64,000 nt of DNA from NCBI GenBank assembly GCA_964495015.1, contig CAZBUD010000016.1, positions 3,491 through 67,490 of the forward strand, given 5' to 3'. Source of the DNA: an uncultured Enterobacteriaceae bacterium (GTDB lineage: Bacteria > Desulfobacterota > Binatia > Bin18). A program made the translations under genes and the position numbers. Shown here in pieces: positions 4,621 through 61,541 of this stretch (position 1 is the stretch's first letter; every line of letters starts with the position of its first letter). Below the pieces are notes generated by a model. The model was not told the origin of the DNA. It searched no databases and worked only from the letters and a program-made list of their open reading frames with translations.

Positions 4621-5805
4621 ATGCAATTTTTCAACTTCCATCTCATGCCCTGGCCACACGTACCAGAGGATTTTGGCGATGCTGAAAAATATCCCTCAGC
4701 TTGGGTCACGTTCTCCAATGAGCACTATGATCCCGAAAAAGGGCAGGATCTGTATAATCGCTATCTGGATGAGCTGGAGTATGCAGAAACGTTAGGTTTC
4801 GATGGCGTATGCGTGAACGAGCATCATCAAAATACGTATGGCACCATGCCGTCGCCCAATATTATTGCCGCCTTGCTTGCGCGCAGAACCAGTCGGGTCA
4901 AGATCGCCATGGTCGGCAACGGGCTGCCGTTGCGCGAGCATCCGATACGGGTGGCAGAGGAGATTGCGATGCTCGACGTCGTCACTGGCGGGCGCATTAT
5001 CTCCGGTTTTGTGCGTGGTATTGGGTGCGAGTATTACTCTATGGGGGTCAATCCTACCCACTCTCTTGCGCGTTTTCGGGAGGCGCATGATTTGATTATT
5101 CGCGCTTGGACCGAGACCGGGCCGTTTAACTTTGACGGTGAACACTACCAGGTTCGCTATGTCAACCTGTGGCCACGTCCGTTTCAACAACCGCATCCTC
5201 CCATCTGGATCCCCGGTTTTGGCAGTAAAGATACAATGAGTTGGTGCGCTGATCCGGCTCGCAAGTACCCCTATTTAGCCGTGTACATGTCGGACGCACT
5301 CGTCAAAACGTATTTCGATCAATATCGTGCGGAGGCCGAGAAATGTGGATATACAGCTTCTCCGTACCAACTGGGTCATTTGCTCCCCATCTATGTGGCT
5401 GAAACCGATGAGCGTGCTCGTGAAGAAGCGGCAGACCACGTTCTGTGGCTTTATCACCGGGGGTTGCGGATTCCCTTAAACATGCTCTTCCCGCCGGGGT
5501 ATGTTACGCAGGAGTCCATGAAACATGTTTTGGGGATGGCTGATGATCTCGACTATGCCAAGATGTCTTTCGATGACCTGAATGATCGCGGCTATTGTGT
5601 CGTGGGCGGTGTGGAGACCGTTAAGCAACGGCTTGCCGCTTCTATCAAAGAATTAGGCTACGGCATTTTACTGTCCCTACTCCAGATTGGTGACATGCCG
5701 CACTACCGGACCGTCAAAAATATGGAGCTGTTCGCCACTGAGGTCATGCCGTATTTGAGAAAAGAGTTTCAGGGCATGCAGGAAAAGTGGGCTCAGGCCG
5801 CGTAG
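4621..5805 (+). CDS. LLM-class (luciferase-like) flavin-dependent oxidoreductase
   Basis: 394 aa. RBS AGGAAGGAGG upstream. TIM-barrel LLM hallmarks are present (LGFDGVCVNEHH, PIWIPGFG, C-terminal helical bundle). Confidence 0.8.
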   Translation: MQFFNFHLMPWPHVPEDFGDAEKYPSAWVTFSNEHYDPEKGQDLYNRYLDELEYAETLGFDGVCVNEHHQNTYGTMPSPNIIAALLARRTSRVKIAMVGNGLPLREHPIRVAEEIAMLDVVTGGRIISGFVRGIGCEYYSMGVNPTHSLARFREAHDLIIRAWTETGPFNFDGEHYQVRYVNLWPRPFQQPHPPIWIPGFGSKDTMSWCADPARKYPYLAVYMSDALVKTYFDQYRAEAEKCGYTASPYQLGHLLPIYVAETDERAREEAADHVLWLYHRGLRIPLNMLFPPGYVTQESMKHVLGMADDLDYAKMSFDDLNDRGYCVVGGVETVKQRLAASIKELGYGILLSLLQIGDMPHYRTVKNMELFATEVMPYLRKEFQGMQEKWAQAA

Positions 5806-5845
5806 GTGAGGATCGGAGCTCGCATGCTTCGGCCCTCCGGAGGCT

Positions 5846-6634
5846 CTACCTATCACTTGCGAGTTGCTGCAGGACCTCCAGAACAGCCCGATGAATGTGA
5901 CTGTTTGACGCAAGCGTTTGCTCACCGTGGAGATCGAAACGAGCGCCAGAAAAATCACTCGTACGGCCTCCGGCTTCTTCGACCAGGAGTGAGCCGGCTG
6001 CAACATCCCACGGGTGCAGCCGCCACTCCCAGAAGCCATCCGCCCGGCCACAGGCCACATAGCACAAGTCGAGCGCAGCAGAACCGCTCCGCCTGACACC
6101 GTGGGTGCGCAGCATAAAGGCTTCGTAGTAACGAAGATAAAATGCGCTCCGCGCGCGGCGATCATACGGGAAACCTGTCAGCAGCAGACTCTGATCAAGT
6201 TGTGCTGCGGAAGAGACATGAATCGAATTTCCGTTGAGATACGCGCCTCCGTTACGACTGGCGCAGAAGGTCTCGTTCCGAAGCGGGTCGTGGACCACCC
6301 CCACAATTATTTTTGACTCATAGGCGAGGGCGATAGAAACGGCAAAGTGTGGATAGGTGTGGGCAAAATTTGTGGTTCCGTCCAATGGATCGATATACCA
6401 ACAATACGGGCTGTCGGGGCCGGACCTGGCCGATTCCTCTGCGATGAACTTATGCGCTGGAAAACGTGAACGCAGCATATCGGTAATCAGACGATCAGCC
6501 GCTTTATCCACGTTGGTGACCAGATCGACCATGTCCGTTTTTATTTCGACTTGTTTGGTTTTGAGCCAGTTTTCCTTGAGAAGAAGACCTGCTTGCAGCG
6601 CCGCGTCTTGGGCAGCTGTTATGAACGCTCGCAT
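5846..6634 (-). CDS. suhB: Inositol monophosphatase family protein (SuhB-like)
   Basis: Carries DFVTNVDKAADRLI, WYIDPLDGTTNF and WDVAAGSLLVEEAGG motifs. I moved the start to the internal ATG (MRAFITAAQDAALQAG), because the longer ORF would overlap ispE. Confidence 0.8.
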   Translation of the reverse strand: MRAFITAAQDAALQAGLLLKENWLKTKQVEIKTDMVDLVTNVDKAADRLITDMLRSRFPAHKFIAEESARSGPDSPYCWYIDPLDGTTNFAHTYPHFAVSIALAYESKIIVGVVHDPLRNETFCASRNGGAYLNGNSIHVSSAAQLDQSLLLTGFPYDRRARSAFYLRYYEAFMLRTHGVRRSGSAALDLCYVACGRADGFWEWRLHPWDVAAGSLLVEEAGGRTSDFSGARFDLHGEQTLASNSHIHRAVLEVLQQLASDR

Positions 6635-7985: not shown

Positions 7986-8951
7986 GTGTTAAAAATATTT
8001 GCTGGAAATTCAAATCGTCCGCTTGCGCAAGAGATCTGCGCTTCCCAGGGCAGTTCTCTCGGTACAGCTGATATCCGTACGTTTAGTGATGGTGAAATCG
8101 CGGTTGAGATCACGGAGAACGTCCGTGGGGGCGATATCTTTGTCGTCCAGTCCATCTGTACGCCCGGCAACGATAATCTTATGGAGCTGCTCCTGATGAT
8201 TGATGCCTTTAAGCGCGCGTCGGCCAATCGTATTACCGCTGTGGTCCCGTATTATGGATACGCACGACAAGATAGGAAAGTTGCGCCCCGGGTGCCCATT
8301 AGCGCCAAACTTGTTGCCGACCTAATAACGACGGCTGGCGCGTCTCGGGTGCTGACCGTTGAATTACACGCCGGACAGATCCAGGGCTTTTTTAATATCC
8401 CTGTTGATAATCTCTTTTCTTCGCAGGTCTTATTGCCGTATTTGCAGTCTCGGGTTGGCCGTGAGCCGGTTAGTGTGGTGTCTCCTGATGCGGGAGGAGT
8501 GGAGCGCGCGCGCGCGTTCGCCAAACGCATGGGAGCGTCGTTAGCAATTATTGATAAACGGCGCGCCCAGGAAGAGGAAAGTGAGATTGACGGCAAAGCG
8601 AACCGCGACGTTGTCGAGATGAACGTCATTGGTGAGGTTGATGGGCGTGTCGCTATTCTGGTTGATGATATGGTAGACACAGCAGGAACGTTGACGACAG
8701 CGGCCAACGCGATCCAGGATGCCGGCGCAAAAGCGGTGATTGCCTGCTGTACCCATGCGGTGCTGTCAGGGCCGGCTATCGAGCGCATCCAGGCCTCAGC
8801 CCTCGAAGAGTTGGTTGTCACGAACTCCATCCCACTTACGCCAGAAGCACAAGCTGTTGGAAAAATTCGGGTCCTTTCTGTGGCCCCGCTGATTGGAGAG
8901 GCTATTCGTCGGATACATAATGAAGAATCAATTAGTTCCTTGTTTGTGTAA
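7986..8951 (+). CDS. prs: Ribose-phosphate pyrophosphokinase (PRPP synthetase)
   Basis: 321 aa with canonical N-terminus [17 protein letters not shown], a [14 protein letters not shown] block and the PRPP-binding loop [10 protein letters not shown]. There is an acidic insertion of about 10 aa ([10 protein letters not shown]) before the flexible loop. Confidence 0.9.
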
Positions 8952-10355: not shown

Positions 10356-10847
10356 ATGCCGATTTATGAGACCCTATATATCCTTCACCCGGAACTGTCC
10401 GCAGCTCGGGTGAAGGAAGTTGTCGAAGGAATGCAAAAGACCCTCGAAGAGAGTCAGGCAAAAATGTTATGGGTTGAAGAGTGGGGGTTGCGCAACTTAG
10501 CCTATGACATTCAGAAACAAAAACGCGGATATTATGTGCGCTTCGAATACGATTCTCCTCCTCAGGCCGTCAGAGCCTTGGAACGGGTCTTGCGCTTAAG
10601 CGAAGACGCCATGCGGTTCTTATCCGTTGCGCGCTCTGCACCGTCGGAGGGGCAAGATCCGAAATCTCAGTCACCTAAACCTGCTGAGCCAGCCGCAGCG
10701 GTCGTTCCTAGGTCAGCAGAGAGTGATGCGCCGCAGTCCACTGCCCCAGAAGAAGGGACAGGTGATGCACCCCAAGCTACTACTCCAGAGGGCGAGGCGA
10801 GTGAGCCCCCTTCAGAGGCTTCAGAGGAAAATACAGAAGGACAATGA
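10356..10847 (+). CDS. rpsF: 30S ribosomal protein S6 (with acidic C-terminal extension)
   Basis: MPIYETLYILHPEL ... EEWGLRNLAYDI ... is the S6 fold. RBS GGAGGAG upstream. Ends at TGA. Confidence 0.9.
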   Translation: MPIYETLYILHPELSAARVKEVVEGMQKTLEESQAKMLWVEEWGLRNLAYDIQKQKRGYYVRFEYDSPPQAVRALERVLRLSEDAMRFLSVARSAPSEGQDPKSQSPKPAEPAAAVVPRSAESDAPQSTAPEEGTGDAPQATTPEGEASEPPSEASEENTEGQ

Positions 10848-39964: not shown

Positions 39965-40207
39965 TTATCTCTCAATCACAATCCGCCATTCCCGGCTGGT
40001 GTCGGTAGCATCTGGTTCGGTAATGTCAATAACGGTGTAGCCTTCGGCTTCTGCCGCGCGAGGAATGTCACGCCGACCTTTGGGGTCGTCGATGATTAGC
40101 TCGAGCCAAGCGCCTTGTTCGAGATATTCGAGCCGTACCTTGGCTTTGGCCCAGTTAAGGGGGCATTTGACCCCGCACAAATTCAGCTGCTCAGTTTTTT
40201 CAGCCAT
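39965..40207 (-). CDS. TusA-like sulfur-carrier (SirA/YedF/YeeD family) protein
   Basis: 80 aa. LNLCGVKCPLNWAKAKVRLEYLEQGAWLELIIDDPKGRRDIPRAAEAEGYTVI follows the TusA fold pattern, with the conserved Cys in a C-P context near the N-terminus. Confidence 0.7.
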   Translation of the reverse strand: MAEKTEQLNLCGVKCPLNWAKAKVRLEYLEQGAWLELIIDDPKGRRDIPRAAEAEGYTVIDITEPDATDTSREWRIVIER

Positions 40208-40583
40208 CGCTGTTTACATACCAGAGAGACTGTCCCCATTCACACTCCCCCCCTCCAGTCCGGTTGCTATTCGCGTCATAGACATAGGTGGACACCACTA
40301 CGCTATTGGCTTCCACTTCATCCAAGCGCCAGGCTACGTCGTAGTGATAGTCGTACGTCGTGGTCACGCCTTCGATAGTCTCTATGGTCTGCGTGATGCG
40401 GCCCAAATCGTCGCGGACGTGGTCCTGCCTGAGCACATCCGTGCTGTTCACCTTGACCGTGTACAGATCCGACTCGCCAAAGCCGTCATAGTCTGTTATA
40501 TCGATCACACTACCCAGCGTACTGCCCGCTTTTGCGAGAACGATAGAATATCGACTGTCTTGAGGGCGGTATCCTCCCCGTTT
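40200..40583 (-). CDS. YD-repeat (RHS-like) small ORF or fragment, overlapping the TusA-like start by 8 nt
   Basis: The frame is open from the stop at 40584. It reads ...GGYRPQDSRYSIVLAKAGSTLGSVIDITDYDGFGESDLYTVKVNSTDVLRQDHVRDDLGRITQTIETIEGVTTTYDYHYDVAWRLDEVEANSVVVSTYVYDANSNRTGG..., with tandem Y-x-YD-x-x-(G/A)-(R/N)-(L/R)-T repeats. No ATG; the first candidate start is a GTG at 40508. Its stop TGA lies inside ATGGCTGA, overlapping the TusA-like ATG. Confidence 0.4.
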   Translation of the reverse strand, partial: KRGGYRPQDSRYSIVLAKAGSTLGSVIDITDYDGFGESDLYTVKVNSTDVLRQDHVRDDLGRITQTIETIEGVTTTYDYHYDVAWRLDEVEANSVVVSTYVYDANSNRTGGGECEWGQSLWYVNSDG

Positions 40584-57559: not shown

Positions 57560-58369
57560 ATGGAAAAAGAGAAAGACATTGCTGTTGCCGCAGCGCACGC
57601 TGCGGGCGATATTATTCGTCAAATCTACGCGACAGACTACGCCGTCGATTACAAAAGTAAGGATAATAGCCCGGTGACGGTTGCTGATCGGGAAGCCAAC
57701 AAAAAGATCCAGGAGATGCTCCAGGGAGCTTGCCCCGACTATGGTTGGTTGTCTGAGGAGACCGTGGACTCGTCCGATCGTCTCGCATCCTGTCGTGTTT
57801 GGATCGTTGATCCCATAGACGGGACCCAAGAGTTCATCCATAAAATTCCAGAATTTGCCGTGTCTATTGGACTCGTCGAGGATGGACGGCCTATTCTCGG
57901 TGTCGTGTACAATCCGACCCTCGATCAACTCTTTTGGGCTATACGCGGACAAGGGGCTTGGTGCGGGGAGCAGCAATTGTGCGTTCCTGAAACGCCTCGT
58001 CTAGCCGAGGCGACGATCCTGTCGAGTCGTTCCGAAACGAAACGCGGAGAATGGAAAGATCTTACTTCCCTTTTCCATGCCCGTCCAATGGGCAGTATTG
58101 CCTACAAGCTCGCCTGCATTGCAAATGGTGAGGCGGATGCATCCTTCACCTTAATACCGAAAAATGAGTGGGACATTTGTGCCGGGACACTGCTTGTGGA
58201 AGAGGCTGGTGGAACTGTGACAAATCTGAGAGGAAAACCAGTGATCTTTAATCAACCCACAACGCTGTTACAAGGCTTGGTTGCGAGCAACGGCAATCTC
58301 CATACGCAGCTCCTAGAGCTGATTAGGCCCCGGTTGACTGACCGGCATCGGGCTGAGGACCGGAAGTAA
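57560..58369 (+). CDS. Inositol-monophosphatase-family phosphatase (CysQ-like 3'(2'),5'-bisphosphate nucleotidase)
   Basis: SPVTVADREANKKI, WIVDPIDGTQEF and WDICAGTLLVEEAGG. Confidence 0.75.
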   Translation: MEKEKDIAVAAAHAAGDIIRQIYATDYAVDYKSKDNSPVTVADREANKKIQEMLQGACPDYGWLSEETVDSSDRLASCRVWIVDPIDGTQEFIHKIPEFAVSIGLVEDGRPILGVVYNPTLDQLFWAIRGQGAWCGEQQLCVPETPRLAEATILSSRSETKRGEWKDLTSLFHARPMGSIAYKLACIANGEADASFTLIPKNEWDICAGTLLVEEAGGTVTNLRGKPVIFNQPTTLLQGLVASNGNLHTQLLELIRPRLTDRHRAEDRK

Positions 58370-58878: not shown

Positions 58879-59766
58879 TTACAGCGCGTGCGTTTTCGAA
58901 GGCGTTGGAAGTGGAGGCTGAGCCGGCGGTTCAGCGTCTAGGCGAACATCTTTTTCTACAGTTTTTTCATCTGGAACTTCGGCCCGCTCAAGGACGAACG
59001 GTTTGCCTCGTCCTGTCGGGTTTGTGACAAAGACATCATACGAACCCGTGTCAAGCGAAAAACGATGCTCTTGCCCAGGCTCACTCCGGGCGATCTCTTT
59101 TTGTGTTCCTGCTGCATAGATAATGACATGGGTGACCGGGCTCACGTCACGTCCGTCAAGGAGCGGGTGAACCCAGAGTTGGCCGCGCATGCGTTCGCGC
59201 AAAGTCAGCTCTTGCAAGCCTCCCCGGTGGAGTTCAATATCACGCCACCACCGACTCTGTGGTGGCGTCGCGACTTTGACATCAACCACTCCGGGCTGAG
59301 CCATAATGCGTTCTCCACTCAGGAATTCTCCAAGCAGGTCTTTTGAAACGCCATCATAGATTTCAACGCCGAGACCCAGATCCTGGCCTTTTTTGTCCAG
59401 GACGTTCACCTGCAGTTCAGCTACCTCGCTGATAATAACACTGCTTGTTCGACCTGCTTTGACGAGGACGCGCTCCCGCGAGATCGTTCCACCCAGGACA
59501 TCGAGTTCGACCCGATATGTTCCTGGTGAAAGTGATAGCAGTCTGCCCAAAGGAGCCATGCTGACAAGGGTTTGGGGATCTGTGGCATAGATCCTGGCCT
59601 GTGCATCCCCCTGGTTTCCCTCTTCGGTAGAGGTCCGAACGATGAGCGAGCCTGTTGCCTCTGGCTCCGCTTGAGGCTGAACAGCGTAGCTAGCATGCGG
59701 CAAGAGTGGCGAGAATGGGAAGAAGAGAAGACTAACCAGACAGATCAATATGCAATACTGTCTCAT
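58879..59766 (-). CDS. Hypothetical secreted protein
   Basis: 295 aa. N-terminal signal peptide MRQYCILICLVSLLFFPF ... ASYA. Beta-rich, and Pro-rich at the C-terminus. Confidence 0.5.
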   Translation of the reverse strand: MRQYCILICLVSLLFFPFSPLLPHASYAVQPQAEPEATGSLIVRTSTEEGNQGDAQARIYATDPQTLVSMAPLGRLLSLSPGTYRVELDVLGGTISRERVLVKAGRTSSVIISEVAELQVNVLDKKGQDLGLGVEIYDGVSKDLLGEFLSGERIMAQPGVVDVKVATPPQSRWWRDIELHRGGLQELTLRERMRGQLWVHPLLDGRDVSPVTHVIIYAAGTQKEIARSEPGQEHRFSLDTGSYDVFVTNPTGRGKPFVLERAEVPDEKTVEKDVRLDAEPPAQPPLPTPSKTHAL

Positions 59767-59798
59767 CGTTGGCAGATTCCTATAAAAAAGCCAGCCGG

Positions 59799-60621
59799 CT
59801 TATTTCTCAATCGGCAAATCTTCTCGATTGCCCCATTCCGCCCATGAAGCATCATAATTCCGGACCTTGTCAAAACCGAGAAGCCGCAGGGTAAAGAGTC
59901 CGTGCGCCGCACGGATGCCGCCCTGTCAATACGTAATGACTTCACATTCAGGCCTGACCCCGGCCTGCTCAAACAGGGAGCGCAATTCTACCGCCGGCTT
60001 AAATTGTCTCGTTTTGGGATCAACATAATTGAGCCATTCGAGATGGACGGCGCCGAAAACCCGCCCGCCACGTTTGGTGCCCCGATCGTTTTCACCCGTC
60101 CATTCCGCGTCCGAACGTGTGTCGAGGACTACCGTATCGGTGTCGATTGCATCCTGGACCTGTTCCCAACGAGCAATGAAGTCTTCACGCACCTGAGGGG
60201 TAAAAACTGCTTTTGCCGGACGAGTGGCCGCAGTTGTCACGGGCCGACCTTCGGCCAACCAGGTATCCCATCCACCGTTCAGCACTTTAGCGTTTGCATG
60301 ACCATAATAGCTGAGTGCCCACCAAAATCGCGTAGCGTACAGGCCGCTAAAGCCGTCATAGGCAACCACCAGGCTGTCAGCGCCGATCCCAAGCGCACCC
60401 ATGGCCTGGGCAAACTCGTCCGGGCCCATAACATGCAGCGCCCCTTCTTTTTCTTTCAAGTAATGATGGCCACGGAAGGTAGTCGCGCCAGGAATATGGG
60501 CGCGTCGGTACGCCTCACGGTTGTCACAATCGACTATTCGAATATTATCGTCCTGGAGATGGGTTGCCAGCCATTGGCTATCGGCCAACATCTCCGGTCG
60601 AGCATAGCCTTGGTCCGCCAT
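59799..60621 (-). CDS. Two-domain rhodanese (thiosulfate/3-mercaptopyruvate sulfurtransferase) with an in-frame TGA at the catalytic-cysteine position; candidate selenoprotein
   Basis: ATG at 60621 preceded by AGGAGG. The N-terminal inactive rhodanese domain is followed by ...[55 protein letters not shown], all in one frame. This aligns to the rhodanese active-site loop (V/I)xxYC(Q/R)xG(I/V)R(A/S) and the downstream YDGSWxEW motif. A shadow ORF (59763-59972) occupies a different frame. Confidence 0.75.
59887..59925 (-). other. Two-stem hairpin immediately 3' of the rhodanese UGA (candidate bacterial SECIS-like element)
   Basis: mRNA: UGA-CAGGG-CGGCA-UCCGUGC-GGC-GCACGGA-CUCUUUA-CCCUG. Lower stem CAGGG/CCCUG, asymmetric internal loop, 7-bp upper stem, G-rich apical loop about 20 nt after the UGA. 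Confidence 0.35.
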
Positions 60622-60698
60622 AAAGTGCCTCCTCTTGTTATTTACTGTAATGGACCCTCGAGGGGGAAGCCAGCAAGGTGCATTATTGGGCGTGTTTC

Positions 60699-61541
60699 TT
60701 ATCGTCCTTGATACTGTGGAGATCGCCCCTCCATACACGCTCGAACCGCCTCTTTCGCATCCTTCGAGCGTATGCACTCAGCCTGACTCTTCGCTTCCAG
60801 CAGCAGCCCGTCACGAACGGACAGATTCTGACTTGCATCAATCGCACGTTTTGCATACCGCACGGCCAACGGAGGCTGGCTTGCCAGCTGTTCAGCCAAG
60901 GCAGAGACCGTTGACTCTAAGGACTCGTCATCGACAAGCTGTTCAGCCAGACCAATCCGATACGCCTCGTCTGCCTCAATTTGCTGGGCAGTGAAAATCA
61001 ACTCCTTGGCTTTTCCTCGACCGACCAAGCGTGGCAGGCGTTGGGTGCCGCCAAGATCTGGGATGAGTCCATAGCGATGCTCAAGCAGCCCCAATTTTGT
61101 CCCGTGTGCAACCACGCGTATGTCGCAGGCCAAAGCAAGTTGCATTCCGCCCCCGAGGGCAAAGCCTCGGACCGCGGCAATAGTTGGATAAGGTGCTTCT
61201 TCAAGCCAGGTATAGGCCTCTTGAAAGCCTTGAATAATAGAAACGAGTGGGTCGTCGTCCGTGACCACCTCTGGAGCCGGCTCACGCTCGTGGACATTAA
61301 AGGTATCGCCACTAAAGGCGGAGGTGTCGATACCTGTTGAGAATGCCCGTCCCTCGCCTATGACGACCAGAGCACGCAGGCTCTCGTCACTAGAAAGAAC
61401 TTGGCCCAGCTCGCGCAACTCAGCCCACATTTTCGGCGTCATGGCGTTCAGTTTTTGCGCCCGGTTAAGCCGCAGCCAGCCAATAGCGCCAGACCGCTCA
61501 TAGCGGAGCGTTTCGAGTTGTGCGAGTTGTGATGGGTCCAT
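60699..61541 (-). CDS. Enoyl-CoA hydratase/isomerase (crotonase family)
   Basis: Internal ATG with an AAGGAG SD. GWLRLNRAQKLNAM, VIGEGRAFSTGID and VRGFALGGGMQLALACDIRV. Confidence 0.8.
   Translation of the reverse strand: MDPSQLAQLETLRYERSGAIGWLRLNRAQKLNAMTPKMWAELRELGQVLSSDESLRALVVIGEGRAFSTGIDTSAFSGDTFNVHEREPAPEVVTDDDPLVSIIQGFQEAYTWLEEAPYPTIAAVRGFALGGGMQLALACDIRVVAHGTKLGLLEHRYGLIPDLGGTQRLPRLVGRGKAKELIFTAQQIEADEAYRIGLAEQLVDDESLESTVSALAEQLASQPPLAVRYAKRAIDASQNLSVRDGLLLEAKSQAECIRSKDAKEAVRACMEGRSPQYQGR

Follow-up and report, generated by a model that had tools for sequence, protein, structure and literature searches.

What does a single in-frame TGA mean in an otherwise intact gene for a sulfurtransferase? 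The question is raised by a minus-strand gene of the rhodanese type in a 64,000-nucleotide (nt) stretch of bacterial DNA, called the window here (contig CAZBUD010000016.1, assembly GCA_964495015.1, GTDB class Binatia). The TGA, at 59928–59926, is the only one in the rhodanese reading frame. We consider it very probable that this UGA is recoded as selenocysteine (Sec) by means of a bacterial selenocysteine insertion sequence (SECIS), giving a 273-residue cytoplasmic two-domain rhodanese in which Sec at residue 232 is the catalytic nucleophile. The initial annotation of this DNA had proposed a selenocysteine sulfurtransferase, and that reading was supported by conservation of the UGA, selection on the frame downstream, a frozen hairpin with compensatory changes and a tRNA-Sec gene in a related Binatia genome.

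The UGA codon and the frame beyond it

The open reading frame (ORF) runs from an ATG at 60621–60619 to a TAA at 59801–59799 and comprises 273 codons (231, the Sec codon and a further 41). This reproduced the layout first described, a rhodanese gene intact save for one in-frame TGA, with the frame staying open for 41 codons to a TAA; the local translation ending in ...YDASWAEWG was recovered as well. The read-through product was matched by PF00581 of Pfam in two stretches (E = 2.6e-30) and aligned end to end with the solved two-domain sulfurtransferases 1uar, 3hzu, 1rhd and 1e0c (E = 1e-43 to 1e-34). Its rhodanese domains stand in tandem, with the catalytic residue in the loop of the C-terminal domain. 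In the alignment with 1uar (E = 1.2e-43), the TGA shares a column with the cysteine (Cys) that opens the active-site loop ('vyCRIAERSSH'), and it does likewise with 3hzu. Full-length homologues have Cys in this column and continue as CQGGIRAAH. All of these alignments agree with the initial placement of the UGA at the active-site Cys of the rhodanese loop. Judged by its sequence, the gene product counts as a relative and not as an SseA equivalog.

A lone in-frame stop looks like the mark of a pseudogene, produced either by a nonsense mutation or by a base-call error, and both gene callers and NCBI annotate a 'sulfurtransferase' of 231–233 amino acids (aa). The distribution of the codon makes this explanation exceedingly improbable. 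A protein search returned 4065 homologues, and the best 120 were examined. About 70 of these (as clusters, at 61–100% identity) were 230–235 residues long and all ended in '...(V/I)TY', while full-length relatives among the 120 had 272–281 residues. We then scanned the GTDB representatives, one genome per species, which gave 217 loci, and the best 80 were kept. Aligning orthologues to see whether they carry a Cys codon or a UGA with a hairpin, a check proposed with the initial annotation, gave TGA at codon 232 in 71 of the 80 loci and TGC in 9. The frame continues after the TGA as QGGIRAAH, as QAGIRAAH in two loci and as QGAVRSSN in two SAR202 genomes, and a real stop follows 41–47 codons past the TGA wherever the contig is long enough to show it. 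Counted roughly from record titles, some 45 of the TGA carriers belong to Candidatus Binatia and some 20 to Dehalococcoidia/SAR202, plus a few that are otherwise labelled.

The same gene was also present in three independent metagenome assemblies, with 1–9 mismatches over 823 nt and an identical TGA. Because the TGA recurs in 71 of the 80 loci and in all three assemblies, we exclude both a base-call error and a private nonsense mutation, and a systematic artefact common to the assemblies is excluded by the differing sequence contexts. The initial annotation argued that a random nonsense mutation would be unlikely to hit the catalytic codon; the TGA is retained in dozens of species from at least two phyla, beyond what chance would give. 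The two SAR202/Dehalococcoidia loci L068 and L076 (both at 10700), which surfaced in a generic scan for UGA, spacer and hairpin, carry a more divergent Sec-rhodanese with the loop U-Q-G-A-V-R-S-S-N.

We aligned 69 TGA genes codon by codon and calculated pairwise divergence for each codon position. Divergence at positions 1, 2 and 3 was 0.274, 0.197 and 0.555 for codons 1–231, and 0.194, 0.178 and 0.542 for codons 242–273, which lie past the hairpin. The third-position bias in codons 242–273 indicates that the downstream stretch is translated. On this alignment, the 41-codon frame is under purifying selection as protein, with the same signature as the frame upstream. This bias, together with the lack of any further stop for 41–47 codons, also argues against a pseudogene.

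A further possibility is that the main product is the truncated 231-residue protein and that read-through is a rare or regulatory event, such as a switch between inactive and active forms that depends on selenium. Bacterial Sec insertion is inefficient and depends on selenium, so the truncated product would accumulate when selenium is scarce. As an account of the main product, we nevertheless regard this as highly unlikely. The 231-residue form has no active-site loop at all and is missing the C-terminal portion of the catalytic domain seen in 1uar and 3hzu, the 41 downstream codons are constrained as strongly as the remaining gene, and the Cys orthologues are constitutively full-length.

In other genes of the window, UGA serves as a normal stop. 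A TGA closes the deoxyhypusine-synthase-like gene, for instance, which matches its Pfam profile almost to the last position, and the ORF of a UvrD-type helicase has one sense codon past its TGA and then a TAG. Several orthologues even terminate the same rhodanese gene with TGA as the true stop. Since UGA is an ordinary stop in these places, the recoding is position-specific and the genetic code is unchanged.

The hairpin after the UGA

The initial annotation described a two-stem hairpin in the 39 nt after the UGA. That segment (59925–59887) folded as described, at −19.1 kcal/mol (z = −3.25), and none of 200 shuffles folded as well. The core stem-loop begins 10 nt after the UGA and has GGC as its apical loop, at nt 18–20 after the UGA. 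The 17-nt upper element alone gave z = −3.08, and a looser 62-nt excerpt only −0.83. Across the family, the upper stem is the part of the description that held: RNAalifold, applied to 63 distinct TGA sequences, returned the upper helix of 7 base pairs (bp) with its 3-nt loop as the sole consensus. The lower stem was paired in about 80% of cells across the family, and this pairing is partly dictated by the peptide.

Codons 236–241 (I-R-A-A-H-G) are unusually constrained at the nucleotide level. Their synonymous-codon identity, defined as the probability of a shared codon in two genes that agree in the amino acid, was 0.89–1.00 against a gene-wide mean of 0.49, and they form the top six-codon window of the gene by this measure (0.955). 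Third-position divergence in these codons was 0.068 overall and 0.0 in 49 closer species, compared with about 0.5 elsewhere.

This constraint does not extend to orthologues with a Cys codon. The three closest TGC orthologues, which are 73–75% identical to the window protein and have the same gene order, have each changed within codons 236–241 (ATT CGC; CAT; AGC), while their peptide over this stretch is nearly the same, with Gly241 replaced by Ser in one of them. In more distant TGC genes, these residues are encoded by unrelated codons. The hairpin-equivalent region of one TGC orthologue did not fold better than its shuffles (z = −0.02), for an excerpt that starts 6 nt 5' of the Cys codon and is therefore in approximate register. 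Because the hairpin codons drift in TGC orthologues, the constraint is tied to the UGA, and the alignments indicate that the hairpin is under RNA-level selection only in UGA-bearing genes.

Compensatory changes were seen as well. A SAR202 variant (L068 and L076), UGCGUUC-GUC-GAACGCA, keeps the register, stem length and loop size and has compensatory changes in two pairs, from C-G to G-C and from G-C to U-A; L072 and L073 show another change, from C-G to A-U. Over 11 distinct hairpin variants, 90.9% of cells were paired, as against 14–68% in controls slid out of register. Covariation was 0.187 compared with 0.064 for shuffled alignments, of which 1 in 500 scored as high. The SECIS core CGUGCGGCGCACG is identical, nucleotide for nucleotide, between Binatia and Dehalococcoidia.

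In its position and loop, the hairpin agrees with published bacterial elements. Their apical loop lies 16–37 nt from the UGA (PMC10778597); here it lies 17 nt away. The SECIS model for the Sargasso Sea selenoproteome has a G in a small apical loop (PMC1088965), and the GGC loop begins with a G. Like the SECIS of E. coli fdhF, the element is a coding-region stem-loop immediately 3' of the UGA with its apical loop inside the 16–37 nt range. The minimal fdhF element is a 17-nt upper stem-loop about 11 nt from the UGA. Unlike the fdhF SECIS, the hairpin described here has GGC as its loop (GUC in SAR202), no bulged U, no sequence similarity and no Rfam match, and binding of SelB to it is only predicted. 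The sole hit of the Rfam searches for a SECIS-type family, to the dinG small RNA, was rejected as being at chance level (E = 3.5). At the level of sequence comparison, our results establish a conserved recoded UGA, a translated frame downstream of it and hairpin selection that depends on the UGA.

Probable selenocysteine decoding and proposed mechanism

The Binatia locus L041 has a gene for a tRNA-Sec with anticodon UCA at 8740–8835 (+), 1.2 kb upstream of the Sec-rhodanese. This tRNA scored 73.8 bits with RF01852, for which the gathering score is 47; its acceptor stem has 8 bp, its discriminator is G73 and its CCA is encoded. The key component for decoding Sec is thus present in at least one member of the class. 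About 2.4 kb beyond this tRNA lies a gene for a 420-aa pyridoxal-phosphate enzyme (5120–6382, −) that scored 194.7 bits with TIGR03576, below the cut-off of 304. TIGR03576 is the archaeal MJ0158 family, formerly annotated as SelA-like. Neither the window nor any other locus contained a homologue of this enzyme. ARAGORN reported a 90–93-nt 'tRNA-Arg(cct)' or 'tRNA-Trp(cca)' in L005 (8566–8658), L008 (8568–8660) and L037 (504–593); these had no Rfam support, did not align with the L041 tRNA-Sec and are probably false positives. The tRNAs of the window are tRNA-Gln and tRNA-Val only. The signature motifs used for SelA (SGDKxxGGPQxG), SelD (GxGCGxK) and translational GTPases (GHVDHGKT) were absent from the window and the 80 loci (1.4 Mb), which is a weak negative. 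Likewise, a search of the window for further selenoproteins, by TGA-interrupted ORFs, by a generic scan for UGA plus spacer plus hairpin and by copies of the SECIS core, gave none that was convincing.

A neighbour-joining tree places L081/L083 and L082, which are TGC orthologues, inside the Binatia TGA clade; they are 80–86% identical to TGA genes. Sec and Cys forms are interspersed elsewhere in the tree. As judged from the tree, Sec and Cys are exchanged dynamically in this family, as is typical of selenoprotein families.

The hairpin could instead help to recode the UGA to a residue other than Sec, either Cys carried by a tRNA-Sec-like tRNA or a residue inserted by near-cognate read-through. 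No Sec-synthesis genes were found in the 64-kb window, selenium itself is invisible in sequence, and published work describes natural variants of recoding that depends on a SECIS (PMC10778597). We judge such recoding to be very unlikely. The tRNA beside the L041 orthologue is a canonical tRNA-Sec (by its RF01852 score), and its G73 is typical of Ser-charged tRNA-Sec. The alternation of Sec and Cys at the nucleophile, with repeated replacement of Sec by Cys nested in the tree, is the classic selenoprotein pattern. In addition, inserting Cys would give no advantage for keeping a UGA and a hairpin across phyla.

Several results weigh against a selenocysteine sulfurtransferase as we propose it. 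The product did not reach the equivalog model for 3-mercaptopyruvate sulfurtransferase, NF008557 (141.5 bits, cut-off 250). The lower stem of the hairpin is poorly conserved across the family. Support for the hairpin is mainly its invariance, with compensatory change in two pairs only, from few lineages. One locus (L080, 10729–10780) keeps the TGA and has a core stem with two mismatches (AUACGCGCGGCACACGUGA); here a selenoprotein gene may be in decay, or the stem may fold in another way. Rfam gave no SECIS-type family, either at the gathering threshold over the window or at permissive E-values over 59750–60050. None of selA, selB, selD and tRNA-Sec lies within the 64-kb window, so Sec decoding in the source genome is something that we infer; their absence from 64 kb of a genome of several megabases says little. 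Finally, Se–S transfer chemistry and the physiological substrate are assumptions made by analogy, and the COG2897 selenoprotein family, to which we would assign the gene, is known by prediction only.

For the proposed Sec enzyme, we envisage that the UGA at 59928–59926 is recoded and that the stem-loop 10 nt downstream acts as a bacterial SECIS, extended here by the lower stem. The SECIS would recruit SelB-GTP-Sec-tRNA(Sec) to the ribosome, Sec would be inserted, and the remaining 41 codons would be translated as far as the TAA. Of these steps, we infer the binding of SelB and the incorporation of selenium at the UGA. By analogy with Cys rhodaneses, the selenolate, held in the U-Q-G-G-I-R-A cradle, would attack a sulfane-sulfur donor (thiosulfate, a persulfide or 3-mercaptopyruvate). 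This would form an enzyme Se-S(−) intermediate, the counterpart of the rhodanese Cys persulfide, from which the sulfur would pass to an acceptor. Compared with Cys, Sec would be expected to have a lower pKa and to be a better nucleophile and leaving group.

The locus, its relatives and their significance

The features of the locus are collected in Table 1. Overlapping with the rhodanese gene is an antisense shadow ORF of 269 aa at 59902–60711 (+). Neither half of the split gene reaches this length, so a program that picks the longest ORF takes the shadow over the true gene.

Table 1. Features of the rhodanese locus and the basis for each, in window coordinates.
Feature	Position	Strand	Basis
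Complete gene, predicted selenoprotein, two-domain rhodanese-type sulfurtransferase	59799..60621	−	Translation, Pfam, full-length alignment to 1uar and 3hzu
Shine-Dalgarno-like AGGAGG, spacer of 6 nt to the ATG	60628..60633	−	Direct reading; putative function
Codons 1–231, the portion that gene callers give as a truncated 231-aa 'sulfurtransferase'	59929..60621	−	Database products of 231–233 aa ending in ...TY
UGA codon 232, read as Sec, at the position of the catalytic persulfide-forming Cys; loop U-Q-G-G-I-R-A	59926..59928	−	Alignment to Cys homologues
Codons 233–273, remainder of the active-site loop and final part of the catalytic domain, translated	59802..59925	−	Conserved peptide, divergence by codon position
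True stop TAA	59799..59801	−	Direct reading
Conserved putative SECIS core, 17-nt stem-loop UCCGUGC-GGC-GCACGGA (7 bp, 3-nt loop) over codons I236–G241	59899..59915	−	Consensus helix, synonymous constraint
Full two-stem hairpin, lower stem CAGGG/CCCUG and two G-U/G-C pairs around the core	59887..59925	−	Folding
Downstream neighbour, secreted 295-aa protein, starting 32 nt past the rhodanese stop	58879..59766	−	Adjacent in 37 fetched loci

In Binatia, the genes for an LLM-class oxidoreductase, an enoyl-CoA hydratase, the rhodanese and the 295-aa secreted protein follow one another in one direction, and an inositol monophosphatase (IMPase)/CysQ-like gene and the deoxyhypusine-synthase-like gene are convergent to them. 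By its conserved context, the rhodanese gene belongs to the syntenic chromosomal core of the class Binatia and is not mobile. Chromosome-level Binatia assemblies with the gene include OZ242288.1, OZ244620.1, OY761159.2 and OZ246888.1. The enoyl-CoA hydratase, LLM-class oxidoreductase, IMPase/CysQ-like and deoxyhypusine-synthase-like genes that flank it did not form a coherent pathway. The IMPase-family protein (57560–58369, +) scored 174.5 bits with HisN and 168.9 with CysQ, both below cut-off, and its adjacency is conserved in Binatia. CysQ is an enzyme of sulfur assimilation. The metagenome-assembled genomes of loci L003, L024, L025, L031, L042 and L045 are labelled 'uncultured Enterobacteriaceae bacterium isolate binchicken_...' (and SRP092796_co2_762) and carry the rhodanese gene at 66–87% identity. 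L003 has the Binatia-type gene order too, and the Enterobacteriaceae labels look wrong.

The 295-aa neighbour has an N-terminal signal-like helix. Its 126 database homologues are all 'hypothetical' and essentially confined to Binatia. An AlphaFold model (predicted local distance difference test score 86) was all-beta, with the tandem immunoglobulin (Ig)/CnaB-like domains of pilins and adhesins as the nearest PDB folds; such generic sandwiches give no hint of the role of the rhodanese. A weak terminator-like 5-bp hairpin with a U-run lies over the TAA (59788–59801, −) and was rejected, with one such element found against 3.1 expected by chance; the next gene begins 32 nt beyond the stop despite it.

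The suggestion of a neighbouring TusA-like operon did not hold. What the window contains is a single TusA-family gene at 39965–40207 (−), 19.6 kb away, with helicase, arginyl-tRNA synthetase, tetratricopeptide-repeat and other genes in between. The encoded protein has 80 aa and scored 52.8 bits with PF01206, and its gene is neither adjacent to the rhodanese nor in an operon with it. The TusA-family gene adds no support to a Sec-rhodanese. Among NCBIfam models, its product comes closest to YedF, a protein of selenium metabolism, at 36.4 bits where the cut-off is 79. The active-site stretch reads CPLN, unlike the CPxP motif of TusA. A 102-aa ORF that overlaps this gene (40200–40508) had no family match.

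Selenoproteins of this type have been predicted before. The 2005 work on the Sargasso Sea selenoproteome introduced COG2897, 'rhodanese-related sulfurtransferase', as a new family of selenoproteins; it reported three sequences and widespread homologues with Cys, and it included a figure of the SECIS (PMC1088965). 'Sulfurtransferase COG2897' selenoproteins appeared again in deltaproteobacterial symbionts of Olavius (PMC1976440) and also in the Global Ocean Sampling (GOS) data (PMC2398784). The family is defined by PF00581 with Sec in a UxxG motif (PMC13188914, PMC1088965), and the rhodanese selenoprotein entries of a 2022 review stand among its only-predicted families (PMC9312934).

The gene described here resembles the COG2897 UxxG family (Zhang et al.) in its PF00581 domains of the two-domain thiosulfate/3-mercaptopyruvate sulfurtransferase type and in its U-Q-G-G motif. 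Further points of likeness are the hairpin with a G in a small apical loop directly past the UGA, the many Cys homologues, an environmental or marine setting and a status as prediction only. It differs from the accounts of the family in the searched literature in its lineage, Binatia, and in its near-universal syntenic presence there. From domain, motif and naming, rather than from alignment to AACY01016424 or MCY3690685.1, we would place it in the COG2897 UxxG subfamily; a cluster look-up for these two published accessions returned other accessions only. In the literature that we searched, no link was found between Binatota or Binatia and selenoproteins, and Binatota and selenocysteine co-occurred in a single paper, which has selenocysteine in its references only.

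Comparison with other rhodaneses places the gene further. It shares with the Cys-type two-domain enzymes (Thermus thermophilus 1uar, Mycobacterium SseA 3hzu, bovine 1rhd/1boh and Azotobacter RhdA 1e0c) an inactive N-terminal and a catalytic C-terminal domain, and a nucleophile that is the first of the six residues of the active-site loop, with a conserved R-A/S after it. Unlike them, it would use Sec as the nucleophile, and its loop, QGGIR, fits neither classical signature. Those signatures are CRKGVT for thiosulfate sulfurtransferase and CG[ST]GVT for 3-mercaptopyruvate sulfurtransferase. Other rhodanese selenoproteins (form 1, UxxS, of Geobacter; form 3, CxU, NF041203; form 5, TsoB) likewise combine the rhodanese fold with a Sec that lies in the active-site loop or close to it. 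They have other Sec motifs and are either single-domain proteins or fusions, and the gene here lies outside them. Membership in rhodanese_LYCAU (NF041203, the CxU form) was rejected at 24.5 bits, against a cut-off of 115.

The gene is a new, systematically mis-annotated member of a selenoprotein family that has been predicted since 2005, and the idea itself is not new. All UGA-bearing public copies that we found are annotated as a truncated 'sulfurtransferase' of 230–235 residues without the active site, and no NCBIfam model recognises the gene as a selenoprotein. As a consequence of this annotation, metabolic reconstructions of Binatia and of many Dehalococcoidia miss a functional sulfurtransferase and the selenium requirement that it implies.

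The value of the finding lies in correcting the annotation and in an experimental entry point, and it will not surprise a specialist. The natural pairs of Sec and Cys orthologues, at 80–86% identity, could be used to probe what selenium contributes to persulfide-transfer chemistry. On the strength of the sequence evidence, the gene would show that Binatia decode selenocysteine; in the searched literature, the group has so far not been discussed as selenium-using. A more speculative idea, which we think unlikely, is that the Sec form is ancestral in this rhodanese clade, that the gene is a housekeeping gene of the whole of Binatia, and that the enzyme is more than a faster rhodanese and does selenium-specific chemistry, such as Se-S or Se-Se carriage for selenium delivery or detoxification. 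If that were true, this would be the first rhodanese with a selenium-dependent physiological role.

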